Assembly: GCA_039656555.1 (NCBI GenBank)
Contig: JBDHLU010000001.1
Span: 406-64,405 of the forward strand
Origin: Gemmatimonadota bacterium
GTDB taxonomy: Bacteria > Gemmatimonadota > Gemmatimonadetes > Gemmatimonadales > GWC2-71-9
Direction: 5' to 3'
DNA: 64,000 nt
Shown here: positions 2,073 through 62,625 of the stretch, piece by piece
How positions within the stretch are numbered: position 1 is the first letter of the stretch
Layout: each line of letters opens with the position of its first letter
Notes under the pieces: generated by a model
Databases searched by the model: none
What the model was told of the DNA's origin: nothing
What the model saw: the letters and a program-made list of their open reading frames with translations, nothing else
Position numbers and translations under genes: made by a program

Positions 2073-2333
2073 CACAGGGTGGCACACCGCGCTACGGGCA
2101 TGCATGGTCCCACTCATTCCCCTCCAGGTGAGCATCCTTGCCGGGCGGCAAAGTGCGCGGTTGCACCACCCCAGTGTCATACGGATCCTACGTGGGTGAG
2201 GGAACGCGGTTTCAGTAAACGCCCGCATTATCCTCTCCTACCCATTAGATGCACGTTCCAGACAATTGGTTTCATCGAGTCTAACTCGGGCCATTGCAGA
2301 GCTTTACGCGACGGCGTAGGTTTAGGCCCAGTG

Positions 2334-2368
2334 CCCGCCCGTTCAGCCGAGCGTGGCGGGATTTTGTG
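2334..2368 (+). terminator. Intrinsic-terminator-like hairpin (CCCGCC / GGCGGG stem, then ATTTTGTG) 23 nt upstream of the HNH gene start
   Basis: Stem 2334-2339 pairs with 2355-2360 and is extendable by 3-4 further pairs. T-run at 2362-2365. A GGGAG Shine-Dalgarno follows at 2379-2384. Confidence 0.45.
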
Positions 2369-2390
2369 CATGTGAATCAGGGAGCCTGGC

Positions 2391-2942
2391 ATGCGTTGTT
2401 TGACGCTGAACGCATCCTTTGAGCCGCTCACGCTCGTTCCCGTTCGACGCGCCCTTCGCCTCGTCATCGATGGCAAGGCCGAGATCGTCGAGTCGGACGG
2501 TAACCGCGTATTTCGTAGTGCCCATGTTACGGTTCCCCGACCCTCGGTCATTCGACTCCGCCGGTTCGTGCACGTGCCGCGGAAGTTCCGACGGCAGGTT
2601 ACGAACACCTTCCTCTTCGCTCGCGACCGATATCGGTGTCAGTTCTGCGGTCGACGCGATGTCGAATTGGGATTCCGCGAGTGTTTGACCCGAGACCACC
2701 TGGTACCGCTTTCACGGGGTGGATCCAATGCTTGGGCCAACGTGGTGACAGCGTGTTCGACGTGTAATACGCGCAAGGGAAACCGCCTAGTGGCTGAGTG
2801 CGGCATGCAGTTGCTCTCTGTGCCAGCCGAACCGCACTTCGTATACCTGACCTGGGCGGTTCGCAAGCTGACGGATGTGCAGTCGAAGTACATCCGGATG
2901 TTCTACGGTGAGGATACGCTGCGGCAGTTGGCTGGTCTTTAG
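2391..2942 (+). CDS. Small HNH endonuclease with PLMP-like N-terminal domain (IshB-like; no RuvC domain)
   Basis: HNH core CQFCG..(19 aa)..[30 protein letters not shown] (CxxC...DH...N...CxxCN). N-terminus is [37 protein letters not shown] sits 7 nt upstream of the ATG. Confidence 0.8.
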
Positions 2943-2954
2943 AGCCGGTCCTGA

Positions 2955-2998
2955 CCCATCCCCCTATCCCGTCATCCCACCATCCCACTATCTTATCC
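2955..2998 (+). repeat. 8-bp-periodic C-tract element, copy A (CCC at 2955, 2960, 2968, 2976, 2984); G-quadruplex-capable on the minus strand
   Basis: cccatCCCCCTATCCCgtcATCCCaccATCCCACTAtcttatcc has only one G in 44 nt. It shares CCCCCTATCCC and ATCCCACTA with copy B at 57289-57332. Confidence 0.7.
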
Positions 2999-3024
2999 AG
3001 CTACGGAAGTGTCGTGAGGACTGG

Positions 3025-4596
3025 TTGGACAGTTACAACTTGCTAGAGACCTTTGCCAAGCACGCCAAGAGGGCACCCGATCGTGAGTGTCTGGTGCTTG
3101 GCAACCGACGCCTGACGTACGGTCAGGTCCAGTCCGAGGTGGACGCGTTGGCGACGGCTCTGCACGACCTGGGGGTGACCCCAGGGACGCGGGTGGCCGT
3201 GGATCTACCCAACTGGCCGGAATGGGTGGTGCTGTTTCTCGCCGTCTCGAAACTCGGTGCGGTGCTCGTACCCCTGAACTCCTCGCTAGGCTATCACGAA
3301 CTCAAATACCTGTTGCGGCACACCGAGGCGATGGTCGCGGTGGTTGCGCAGAGGTTGGGCGACGTCGACTGCTTCGAGGTGTTCGAGGACCTCGAAGGCT
3401 CACTTCCTGACCTCCAGTACCTCGTCAGTGTGGGGATGGAGGACTCCTGGGCGGACGACCGGATCCATAGGTGGTCGGATTTGTTGGCCCGGGGACGCTC
3501 ACGGGATCCGGTGGCAGGCACGCTCACCGATCCGAAAGACCCCGCGGCGATCCTGTATACCTCGGGTACCATGGGGAAGCCGAAGGGGGTGGTGTTGTCG
3601 CTGGAGAGTCTGATCTTCACGGCAGACCGATCGGTCGATGCGCTCGAACAGTCGGCGGATGATCGCGTGCTTGTGGCGGTTCCCTTGTTTACTATCTTTG
3701 GGATCCATATCGTGCTCGGCGGACTCGTGAGTGGCGGGACCCTCGTGTTCCAGGAACGATTCGAGCCAGGAGCGGCCCTCGACTTGATCGAAGCGGAGGG
3801 CATCACGGTCTGCCACGGTGTGCCAACCATGTTCCAACTCTTGATGCGCGAGCCCTCATTCGAGAGTAGGAATCTGTCCACTGTCCGAACGGGCATTGCG
3901 GCGGGGAGCCCGGTCTCCCCAGACCTCGTGCGGAGAATTCGGCGGTGGAATGACGTGCAAATCGCCTATGGACTCACCGAAACGGGTCCGACGGTTTCGA
4001 TCACTCAGTTCGACGATCCGACTGAGTGCCGCGAATCCACCGTCGGGAGACCGATTTCGGGAGTGGAGGTGCGCGTGCTAGAAGTCATATCCGATGACGC
4101 GCACGGTACCAAGGCTGTTGGCGAGCTTGCCGTCCGCGGTCCGAACGTCATGACGGGATACCTCCGCATGCCGTCCGAGACCAAGAAGCTGTTCACGGAG
4201 GACGGATTCTTCGTGACCGGCGATCTCGCGTTCGTCGACGAGGCTGGATACGTCACGATCGTTGGAAGACGAAGGGCCATGATCATTCGTGGCGGCCACA
4301 ATGTCTTCCCCAGAGAGTTGGAAGATGTGCTCCGTACCCATCCGGCACTTGATGATGCCTGTGTGGTCGGGATCCCCAACGAAATACTCGGGGAGCTGAT
4401 CTGCGCGTGTGTCATTCCGGTGGAAGGAGCGATCATCACTGGGGAGGAGATCAAGGAATTCTGCCGCGAGCACCTTGCCAACTACAAGGTCCCGGATGCG
4501 GTCCGGTTCTTCGACACCTTCCCGATGACCGGGAGCGGGAAGGTGCAACGACTGGAACTGGAACGCGTTATGGGGCTGGAATTGAGTAATACGTGA
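3025..4596 (+). CDS. AMP-dependent acyl-CoA synthetase/ligase (fatty-acid-CoA ligase family)
   Basis: AMP-binding signature [13 protein letters not shown], plus YGLTETG and [19 protein letters not shown]. The ORF opens at 2875, but its first ~50 codons run through the C-tract repeat. In-frame TTG 3025 is proposed as the start (uncertain). Confidence 0.85.
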
Positions 4597-6272
4597 ACGA
4601 CAGAACTCCCAACATGGCGTCGCCAAGCGGCGCCGCCACCGTGCACGCCCCCAACGCAGCATTGATGATCGATTTCGACAACGTCACGTTGGGTATCCGA
4701 ACCGATCTGCAGAATCAACTTCGTGCGCTGATGAACTCCGAGATCATCAAGGGCAAGGTGGCGGTCCAACGCGCGTATGCCGATTGGCGGCGCTACCCTC
4801 AGTACATCGTGCCGCTATCGGAGGCATCCATCGATCTCATTTTCGCGCCGGCATTTGGTTCCAACAAGAAAAATGCGACCGATATCCGTTTGGCTATCGA
4901 CGCGCTCGAACTCGTATTCACGCGACCGGAGATCGGGGTGTTCATCTTGCTCTCGGGCGATTCGGACTTCTCGAGCCTGGTGCTGAAGCTGAAGGAATAC
5001 GGAAAATACGTAATCGGTGTCGGGATCCGCGAATCGTCGAGCGATCTGCTCATTCAGAACTGCGACGAGTATTACAGCTACAATGAGTTGACCGGATTCA
5101 CGAAAGAAAGTGACGTCGAACGCGTGTCGATGGATCCGTGGCAACTCGTCGTGCTCGCGGTGACGCAGATGAAGAAAGAAGAAGACGTGATGCGTTCTGA
5201 TCGTCTGAAGCAGGTCATGCAGTCGCTCGACCCCACCTTCGACGAAAAGAGCGCCGGCTTCAACCGGTTCAGCAAATTCGTCGTCGAGGCGCAGAATCGA
5301 GGAATGATCACGCTTACGAAACTCGACAACGGCCAATTCGCCGTCGATATCGGTGACAACGCCAATGTGTCGCCCGAGGACGAAGAAGCGTTCAAGCAAT
5401 CGAGTGGCCGCGGCGGAGGTCGTTCAAAGCGTCGTCCACGTTCTAGGGGGCCGGCCAAACGCAGCACGCTGCTCCTGGCCGAAGCGTTCGATCTTCTGCG
5501 AGAGGCATTGGTTCAGTTGGGGGCGACCGTCGAAGCGTCCGTAGATGCCGAGGCGGTGCACGAACGGATGTTGGAGCTGTTCTCCGGCGATGATGATCCG
5601 TTGTTCGAACGCCCACGGTTCCAACGACTCATGCGCCAAGCGCACGACGCCGATGTAATCGAACTGGTGAAGCAGGGCGACACCTACGCAATGCGATTGA
5701 GTACTGCCACACCGGCACCGGCCGCCAAAGTGGAGAAAGGCGAGGACTCAGGCGAAGCGACGAAACGCCCGCGCACGACGCCAAAGACCACGAAGGCCAA
5801 GACCACGAGAAAGAGGGCGCCAAGGCGTAAACCGTCAAAGACGGAGGAAGCGGATCAGTCACCGAACGCAGGAAAGAAGGACCAGCCTGCGGCCACTGAC
5901 CCGGTCGCGCCACGACAGTCGACCGGCTCCCGTTCGCTTGGGCCACGCCGCGGGAGTAGCCGGGGATCTCGAGGTGTGAAGGCTCCACCGAAGCAGGAGG
6001 AACCAAAGAGCGCGGAATCGGTGGGTTCGCCCAAACCGACTCCGGATCCCAAACCCACTCCAGAACCCAGATCCAAACCCGCCCCCAAATCCAAACCGGC
6101 CCCCAAATCCAAACCGGCCCCCAAATCCAAACCGGCACACACACAACGGGTCGACGGAGCTCCACGATCACCCATCGCCGGCGAGACCGCGTCCTCCGAA
6201 GAAGATGGTGGACTTCTCAAGCGCATGAGCGCCGCGATCCAGAAGGTGATGCGGGGTCCGGAGGACGAGTAG
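4593..6272 (+). CDS. NYN (LabA-like) domain protein with central OST-HTH/LOTUS-like region and Lys/Pro-rich basic C-terminal tail
   Basis: [21 protein letters not shown] and [27 protein letters not shown] fit the NYN/LabA fold. The C-terminal ~190 aa are K/P/R/T-rich. GTG 4593 overlaps the upstream stop (GTGA); ATG 4614 is an alternative start. Confidence 0.75.
6069..6140 (+). repeat. 18-bp tandem repeat x4 (AAATCCAAACCGGCCCCC) encoding (KSKPAP)n inside the NYN protein tail
   Basis: Units at 6069-6086 (2 mismatches), 6087-6104, 6105-6122 (identical to the previous unit) and 6123-6140 (diverges at its 3' end). Confidence 0.9.
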
Positions 6273-62574: not shown

Positions 62575-62625
62575 TCGATAGCAAGGCGGGGACGAGCATG
62601 GTGCTCGTCCCCGCCTTGCTATCGA
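62575..62625. terminator. Perfect 23-bp-stem hairpin between convergent genes (bidirectional terminator candidate)
   Basis: TCGATAGCAAGGCGGGGACGAGC (62575-62597), loop ATGGT, GCTCGTCCCCGCCTTGCTATCGA (62603-62625). No U-tract. Confidence 0.7.

Follow-up and report, generated by a model that had tools for sequence, protein, structure and literature searches.

The 64,000-nt window analysed here, taken from contig JBDHLU010000001.1 of a Gemmatimonadota bacterium, encodes a 183-aa HNH nuclease whose N-terminal domain has the fold of the PLMP domain of IscB and IsrB proteins. This gene and the 318 bp in front of it (2073-2390) had originally been predicted to form a small RNA-associated nuclease system, the upstream region yielding one structured, terminator-capped transcript placed as an omega-RNA is placed relative to iscB or isrB. 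Comparison with related loci leads us to a different view, namely that the interval 2073-2942 probably holds three separate units, the nuclease gene, the signals for its expression and an RNA element, rather than one RNA-plus-nuclease module. Judged by its sequence, the 318-bp region is a composite in which a cloverleaf-like RNA motif is followed by the gene's own promoter and then by a short hairpin. The evidence for this arrangement comprises the domain folds, the conservation and synteny of the gene, a promoter motif, the enrichment of the hairpin and the covariation of the RNA motif. The omega-like reading fails, and the leads that are left are a domesticated IshB-type gene and a new RNA motif; the novelty lies in a chromosomally fixed, separately regulated PLMP-HNH gene beside an undescribed structured RNA motif. 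The strings and coordinates quoted for 2073-2942 in the original prediction all match the window sequence, each being found where it had been placed.

The nuclease gene and its expression signals occupy the downstream part of the interval (comparison loci are designated by L-numbers hereafter):

2282-2322, + strand: putative promoter of the HNH gene, recognized by conservation of TTGCNN-17-TANNNT
2282-2285, + strand: conserved TAAC block
2294-2299, + strand: -35 element, TTGCAG
2304-2307, + strand: conserved TTAC within the 17-nt spacer
2317-2322, + strand: -10 element, TAGGTT
near 2329-2331, + strand: predicted transcription start
2334-2368, + strand: GC hairpin with arms 2334-2344 and 2349-2360, then ATTTTGTG, from folding and positional enrichment
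2380-2384, + strand: Shine-Dalgarno sequence GGGAG, 6 nt before the ATG (2391), read from the sequence, with GGAG or GGGAG at the same position in relatives
2391-2942, + strand: gene for the 183-aa PLMP-fold plus HNH nuclease of IshB-like architecture, from its open reading frame (ORF), translation, Pfam, AlphaFold2 and Foldseek

A conserved promoter of the sigma-70 type is likely to drive the HNH gene. The pattern TTGCNN-17-TANNNT is found at -85 to -107 from the start codon in 70 of 153 loci, as against 0 in three control sets; its TTG and the first, second and sixth positions of the -10 element (T1, A2 and T6) are nearly fixed, and the inner -10 positions are free. In L003, L006 and L009 the upstream gene is a divergently transcribed EamA transporter, so that the HNH gene of these loci cannot do without a promoter of its own. 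Both the promoter and the hairpin are present in these loci, and TTGCNN-17-TANNNT is the only conserved promoter candidate in their intergenic regions. Two helices that had been proposed for the leader, GGGCC with GGCCC and TACGC with GCGTA, overlap the conserved -35 and -10 regions, and their pairing is broken in L082, L166 and L001; they are not supported as RNA helices. Their case is a caution that a long "structured leader" in a GC-rich genome may conceal a promoter. A sigma-54 reading of the TTGCA box was rejected, as there is no GG 12 nt upstream.

The promoter region has further regularities. Its conserved blocks lie about 11 nt apart in some 50 loci (TAAC near -46, TTGCA at -35, TTAC near -24 and GTA at -12), and an inverted repeat, TTAC-N8-GTAA, overlaps the -10 element and is perfect in L010, L016 and L019. 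The repeat could be an operator for some regulator; a LexA-type operator was considered, a scan of the window for the repeat gave 9 matches versus 5.9 expected, and a literature search yielded nothing on a LexA motif in Gemmatimonadota. The clade formed by L018, L022, L023, L025, L028 and L038 (-150 to -1 compared) has TTGCNN-17-TACGAT about 140 nt before the HNH start and a 5' untranslated region (UTR) of about 110 nt with a hairpin of its own; it has no cloverleaf motif despite an amidohydrolase gene directly upstream.

The position of the promoter, between the RNA motif and the hairpin, implies that the hairpin opens the HNH mRNA at its 5' end instead of closing a long RNA at its 3' end, and the proposal of a single terminator-capped transcript of 250-290 nt abutting the gene is not supported. 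The GC stem and T-run themselves had been correctly noted. The hairpin has an 11-bp GC stem with one bulge, followed by AUUUUGUG, resembles an intrinsic terminator, and sets in about 3-5 nt past the predicted transcription start. Of 134 distinct relatives, 52 carry a strong hairpin and T-rich tail no more than 100 nt ahead of the start codon, which is more often than chance would give: the corresponding counts were 5/134 on the reverse strand, 0-10/134 in other regions and 33/670 in shuffles. The T-tail enrichment is confined to the + strand, and the hairpin begins 0-24 nt past the -10 element in relatives. Many of them have it 20-45 nt ahead of the coding sequence; its CCCGCC/GGCGGG base is partly conserved, and its tail reads UUUGUGUA. 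On average, 49 5' UTRs folded better than their shuffles, with a mean minimum free energy (MFE) z-score of -0.86 versus -0.08 for a coding-sequence control, and an RNAalifold consensus of 38 5' UTRs predicted no pairs. The support for the hairpin is thus positional enrichment, not covariation.

We propose that the nuclease gene is an autonomous transcription unit made up of a promoter, a 5'-terminal hairpin with a short U-tract, a Shine-Dalgarno sequence and the ORF, and that its mRNA would begin about 4 nt before the GC hairpin. The promoter-proximal hairpin would act in cis on the nuclease mRNA, and constitutively, since it lies a few nucleotides from the 5' end and leaves no space for an alternative fold. 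Its likeliest role, by comparison among loci, would be that of a leaky attenuator that keeps a potentially toxic nuclease low and insulates it from upstream read-through; a 5'-terminal stabilising stem-loop would be a close second. Promoter-proximal intrinsic attenuators and 5' stabilising stem-loops, such as the 5' hairpin of ompA, are known kinds of element. The present arrangement resembles them in having a GC hairpin near the predicted 5' end, a U-rich stretch and then the Shine-Dalgarno sequence. It differs in that there is no room for an antiterminator fold and that the U-tract has 4 U, followed by a conserved GUGUA.

The hairpin and T-run might instead terminate the upstream operon, in which case the RNA motif would be part of a long 3' UTR of the amidohydrolase gene, and the HNH promoter would have little strength or no relevance. 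The window motif does start 5-8 nt past the amidohydrolase stop codon, and from that stop (2072) to 2334 the window shows no other terminator-like structure. However, the hairpin and the promoter that precedes it are kept beside the divergent EamA genes, and the hairpin is also found behind ArgH and behind a pilin-like cluster. Being kept behind such varied upstream genes, it travels with the HNH gene. The suggestion that it is just the amidohydrolase terminator therefore fails as a general explanation, and we regard an operon terminator as distinctly unlikely; an added insulator role of the hairpin in the window is possible as part of the autonomous transcription unit.

The RNA element lies at the other end of the region and is followed by a less conserved spacer:

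2080-2168, + strand: cloverleaf-like structured RNA motif of about 90 nt, from an nhmmer profile, pair counts and covariance model R1
2080-2091 with 2156-2168, + strand: helix P1, which closes three hairpins
2096-2098 with 2109-2111, + strand: helix P2
2112-2116 with 2129-2133, + strand: helix P3, with the conserved C-rich loop core UCCCCUC
2136-2142 with 2147-2153, + strand: helix P4, the TTGCC-GGGC-GGCAA hairpin
2176-2276, + strand: spacer with short conserved blocks common to distant motif-bearing loci, from alignments A2 and A6
within the spacer, + strand: a GGTTTC hairpin region, TAGATGCA at 2246-2253 and TTGGTTTCA at 2266-2274

The long stem (2077-2092 with 2155-2171) and the nested hairpin (2138-2151) of the original prediction are borne out as parts of this conserved, covarying four-helix motif. 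Among eight motif sequences, 87% of cells were paired, versus 37-47% with slid partners, and there were ten compensatory pairs; with twelve sequences the figures were 85.6%, 35-47% for slid controls and 11 compensatory pairs. Covariance model R1 recovered copies on which it had not been trained (L166, L172, L169, L170, L168 and L171), and the motif matched no Rfam family. A structured upstream RNA is hence real as regards 2080-2168, but the region as a whole is not one RNA. The pseudoknot that had been proposed is not upheld either: its partner GAGGGAA (2198-2204) falls within the 51 nt (about 2175-2225) that are deleted in the closest relative, L081, which is 98% identical, and it is not conserved outside the window's subclade.

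The motif was found in 14 of about 170 Gemmatimonadota HNH loci, and more than 90% of the orthologous loci with gene, promoter and hairpin have none. The gene before it is that of the amidohydrolase in the clade of the window, and ArgH in L083, L012, L096 and L171. In L021 it is 3.9 kb from the HNH gene, with a 3.8-kb pilin-like gene cluster in between, and the motif and the HNH promoter are therefore separable. We favor, with some confidence, the view that the motif is an element independent of the nuclease and not an obligate partner, because it is absent in most orthologues, can be moved 3.9 kb away and has loops that show no co-variation with the HNH 5' UTR. Pairing of the P2, P3 and P4 loops with the HNH 5' UTR, in the manner of an anti-terminator or anti-Shine-Dalgarno element, was tried and rejected, cognate combinations (-14.75 kcal/mol) equalling non-cognate ones (-14.43 kcal/mol). 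Neither a promoter nor a terminator belonging to the motif was identified. The cloverleaf RNA probably either ends the upstream transcript as part of its 3' UTR or is a separate small RNA with an anti-Shine-Dalgarno-like loop.

By its sequence, the P3 loop core UCCCCUC resembles an anti-Shine-Dalgarno sequence. Small RNAs with C-rich loops of this kind in their hairpins are known from the CcsR or "cuckoo" and the RoxS/RsaE types, and the likeness lies in the complementarity of the P3 core to GGAGG-type ribosome-binding sites. Unlike them, the present motif is a four-helix cloverleaf with a single C-rich loop, and it has no Rfam match. As a candidate new RNA family, the cloverleaf of about 90 nt would be of interest in Gemmatimonadota, a phylum with few described regulatory RNAs.

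Loci with the motif show additional features. In those of the ArgH type, an extra GC hairpin (e.g., GGGGAGCGA-ttccgg-TCGCTCCCC) directly precedes the motif, at about 2090-2116 in L083, 3590-3618 in L012 and 2080-2106 in L096. Its stems vary by locus; it may serve as terminator for ArgH or belong to a longer RNA as a fifth helix. The cluster between motif and HNH promoter in L021 (929-3770) consists of prepilin-type genes with an N-terminal methylation motif.

The motif, the promoter and the hairpin are the best-conserved intergenic segments. Single-sequence folding of the whole region was no better than that of shuffles (z = -0.85), and neither the motif (z = -0.58) nor the 5' UTR (z = -1.73) beat its shuffles, such z-scores being uninformative in DNA this rich in G+C. 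These unremarkable MFE values are what would be seen if the pairing potential were a by-product of high G+C content and nothing functional lay upstream. That explanation appears extremely improbable, as it is contradicted by the comparative data: the motif covaries, the promoter and the hairpin are enriched over controls, and it is these three segments that are conserved. An Rfam scan of the window region (E ≤ 10) and of six related loci (E ≤ 1), HEARO/omega-RNA models included, returned nothing relevant, and ARAGORN found no tRNA or tmRNA. A small conserved ORF in 2073-2390 was discarded because of 1-nt indels between the window and its 98%-identical relative. A dispersed repeat or miniature inverted-repeat transposable element was also ruled out, since the window has a single copy and the loci contain no others.

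Several observations weigh against dividing the interval into three units. In the window, only 6 of the 12 promoter positions agree with the E. coli consensus, and the promoter was unreported by a generic scan; a generic terminator scan, which needs 5 T in 8, was silent at the hairpin because the run has four T only. The covariation expected of the upstream regions of relatives was obtained in the motif but was not significant for the 5'-UTR hairpin, analysed in fixed register on the sequence alignment, and L171, L004 and L008 have no hairpin. The transcription start and all RNA ends are predictions. The comparison loci were all gathered via the HNH gene, which leaves motif occurrences elsewhere in the genomes uncovered. 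Moreover, 13 of the 14 motifs lie directly upstream of the HNH gene and in the same orientation, behind two different upstream genes (amidohydrolase or ArgH), as would fit a functional link, and a commentary counts IshB loci among those that also encode omega-RNAs (PMC11610941).

The last two points favor a cofactor, in that the motif (2080-2168, perhaps to about 2276) might be a cis-encoded RNA partner of the PLMP-HNH protein, a small analogue or relic of omega-RNA that some lineages would have kept beside the gene and others would have lost, altered or relocated. In its favor too, the motif is a real structured RNA, and the PLMP domain of IsrB contacts omega-RNA hairpins beside the Shine-Dalgarno sequence (PMC9581776). 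Yet the motif is missing from over 90% of orthologous loci, although their proteins are 70-85% identical and promoter and hairpin are retained; a conserved promoter separates motif and gene, and in L021 so do 3.9 kb; there is no Rfam omega-RNA/HEARO match; neither a guide-like variable 5' segment nor an insertion-sequence (IS) end was identified; and the motif loops do not co-vary with the HNH 5' UTR. Linkage is an unfair test here, given a sampling biased to HNH loci. On balance a cofactor seems unlikely, and nothing in the present results supports an RNA partnership of the nuclease with its upstream region. In OMEGA systems a conserved structured RNA of 200-300 nt adjoins the ORF, is transcribed together with it up to its start and accompanies the gene family-wide; the present motif has about 90 nt, occurs in a small minority of loci and is separated by a promoter. 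The omega-RNA-like geometry that had been seen in the region breaks down on these grounds and on the lack of an IS context, and no guide-like segment for RNA-guided cleavage was identified in the region. We retain the division into gene, expression signals and RNA element.

The 183-aa ORF is present at 2391-2942 with the N-terminus and HNH core that had been quoted for it. Its only Pfam matches are HNH models (HNH_5, HNH and HNH_4), which agrees with the earlier statement that there is no RuvC segment. The NCBIfam guided_IscB model covers the HNH segment alone, with 47 bits against a cut-off of 175, and a sequence search of the PDB retrieved HNH domains only, from Gme HNH (4H9D), IscB and Cas9. 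In a 55-member family alignment, C83, C86, H103 and N117 are invariant, and C122, C125 and N126 are nearly so; as zinc and catalytic residues are kept, the HNH domain is, to judge from its sequence, catalytically intact.

The AlphaFold2 model made from this alignment has a predicted local distance difference test (pLDDT) score of 92.5, and the N-domain (residues 1-56) modelled alone scores 90.5. The N-domain consists of beta1 (2-6), beta2 (12-17), a helix (18-26) and a beta3/beta4 hairpin (30-56), a topology of four antiparallel strands and one helix that agrees with the published PLMP domain of DtIsrB (PMC9581776). When it was compared with the whole PDB by Foldseek, the best nine matches were exclusively IscB/IsrB chains (7XHT, 9K30, 8DMB, 9K2Z, 9LIQ, 7UTN, 9NVU, 8CTL and 8CSZ), with probabilities of 0.95-1.00, template modelling (TM) scores of 0.54-0.61, best root-mean-square deviations of 2.3-2.5 Å, and about 60 residues aligned at 18-23% identity. 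The next match was the N-domain of IF3, which has been reported as a remote relative of PLMP (PMC9581776). The full model matches Cas9, IscB and Gme HNH, and also, via the N-domain, IsrB, which is without HNH.

Sequence comparison of the N-domain gave a different picture. RRXRR (PF14239), the Pfam model on record for a DtIsrB PLMP relative, matched 0 of 55 family members at E ≤ 10, and an N-terminal profile searched against the PDB found no IscB/IsrB chain. With hhalign, the DtIsrB PLMP peptide aligned in the expected register, EPL under PLMP and a 12-letter stretch under RKARLLIRDGLA, at a probability of 8% and P = 0.004; the literal PLMP motif is replaced by EPLTLV in this protein. A homology search with the DtIsrB PLMP peptide retrieved one protein, so that no PLMP profile could be built and fold comparison was used instead. 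The fold result is given more weight than the sequence tests because true PLMP domains barely detect one another by sequence, DtIsrB finding TbaIscB at E = 0.008 and OgeuIscB being missed. The PLMP-type N-terminus of the original prediction thus holds at the level of fold but not at that of profiles, and the combination of a PLMP-like domain with HNH only is corroborated by Pfam, the AlphaFold2 model and the N-domain fold matches. On the modelled structure, the protein is of IshB-type architecture, from which we infer its identity with the original IshB set.

IshB proteins have been described as having about 180 aa, with a PLMP-type N-terminus followed by HNH, neither RuvC nor TAM-interacting domain, and an uncharacterised function (PMC10734217; PMC11610941; PMC13284715). 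They have been called predicted nickases or a possible ancestral state, without experiments (PMC10734217; PMC13284715), and mentioned as a stage that may have come early in IscB and Cas9 evolution (PMC13284715). The present protein is like them in its 183 aa, its PLMP-type fold plus HNH, and the lack of RuvC and TAM-interacting domains. In contrast, its gene is fixed, single-copy and highly conserved in the chromosome, with its own promoter and stable neighbours and without transposase, IS ends or omega-RNA match; RRXRR does not match it. As to IscB and IsrB, the N-domain superposes on the PLMP domains of OgeuIscB, TbaIscB, HfmIscB, OrufIscB and DtIsrB, the HNH domain resembles those of IscB and Cas9, and a structured RNA and a Shine-Dalgarno-proximal hairpin lie upstream on the same strand, but RuvC, bridge helix and TAM-interacting domain are absent. 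The omega-RNA of these systems (HEARO, Rfam RF02033) has 200-300 nt, whereas the RNA found here has about 90 nt, is separated by a promoter, is missing from most orthologous loci and has no Rfam match. The best sequence match of solved structure is Gme HNH of Geobacter metallireducens (4H9D; E = 1e-8, about 40% identity over 66-75 residues), which differs in being a 112-aa stand-alone nicking endonuclease with neither a PLMP-fold N-domain nor C-terminal helices.

The PLMP fold lends some interest to the idea that the 5'-UTR hairpin next to the Shine-Dalgarno sequence is a candidate binding site for the protein's own PLMP domain, which would allow autoregulation by translation or attenuation. 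The study of IsrB reports contact of PLMP with the terminal hairpin and the Shine-Dalgarno sequence, and suggests a control of expression (PMC9581776); here, the fold is confirmed, and in many relatives the hairpin lies at the distance from the start codon given above, with its partly conserved base and its tail. The basis of the idea is analogy, however, and the hairpin is gone in three loci (those named above), the L018-type clade has a different, longer 5' UTR, and distant members in phage-like contexts are without any 5' UTR. Autoregulation of this kind might be imagined but is improbable, and a constitutive cis-acting hairpin is preferred.

The nuclease gene is vertically inherited, single-copy and chromosomal, and is not insertion-sequence cargo. 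Identity among Gemmatimonadota species amounts to 70-98%. A scan of one genome each of 185,579 GTDB species gave 188 relatives, the best 80 of which each come from a different Gemmatimonadota assembly and are 68-87% identical; the best 120 protein-database matches are 75-96% identical and nearly all have 183 aa. In the window, the gene is flanked upstream by genes for a penicillin-binding protein and the amidohydrolase, and downstream by those for an AMP-binding enzyme and an NYN/OST-HTH protein. The order AMP-binding then NYN downstream is kept as a stable synteny in many species, and the upstream gene in relatives is an amidohydrolase, ArgH or a divergent EamA transporter, with the penicillin-binding protein also upstream. 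No transposase was present in any locus whose flanking genes were examined. With this synteny and one gene copy in the window, carriage by an IS200/IS605-type element does not fit.

The presence across the phylum of a fixed, strongly conserved and separately regulated gene argues for a role in cellular DNA or RNA metabolism. A more far-reaching proposal is that the domesticated IshB-type protein, as the product of a phylum-wide core gene, has kept a function with RNA that depends on its PLMP domain, the partner being either the Shine-Dalgarno-proximal hairpin of its own mRNA or the cloverleaf. We hold this to be quite improbable; if true, it would amount to a minimal and possibly ancestral RNA-protein partnership of the IsrB, IscB and Cas9 kind. 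Independently of this, the set of orthologues offers a tractable ground for asking whether PLMP binds RNA without a RuvC scaffold.

The wider family has 3,412 representatives of 50%-identity clusters at E ≤ 1e-10. At 40-45% identity it spans chromosomal and phage-like contexts, with no TnpA in those examined. In two distant members (P0161 and P0181, at L163 and L165), the PLMP-like plus HNH architecture is found inside phage-like gene arrays with many small ORFs, RecA and a Gp80-like protein, and one of the copies overlaps the gene before it. Membership of the family thus extends beyond cellular core genes.

Minor observations concern the surroundings of the gene. Past the HNH stop codon, at 2943-3010 of the window, there is a C-rich segment with about five ATCCC-like repeats (CCCATCCCCCTATCCCGTCATCCCACCATCCCACTATC) before the likely start of the AMP-binding gene. 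A YjbQ-family gene lies between the HNH and AMP-binding genes in L171 (3575-3994) and L012 (4408-5115). The NYN plus OST-HTH/LOTUS gene, syntenic with that of the nuclease in many species, encodes in the window (4593-6272) a protein with a long low-complexity C-terminal tail of tandem PKSKPA repeats. Canonical intrinsic terminators are otherwise few in the 64 kb, and the clearest terminator-like hairpin of the window is a perfect 14-bp GC palindrome at 62585-62615 (GGCGGGGACGAGCA-TGG-TGCTCGTCCCCGCC), which is the same on both strands.

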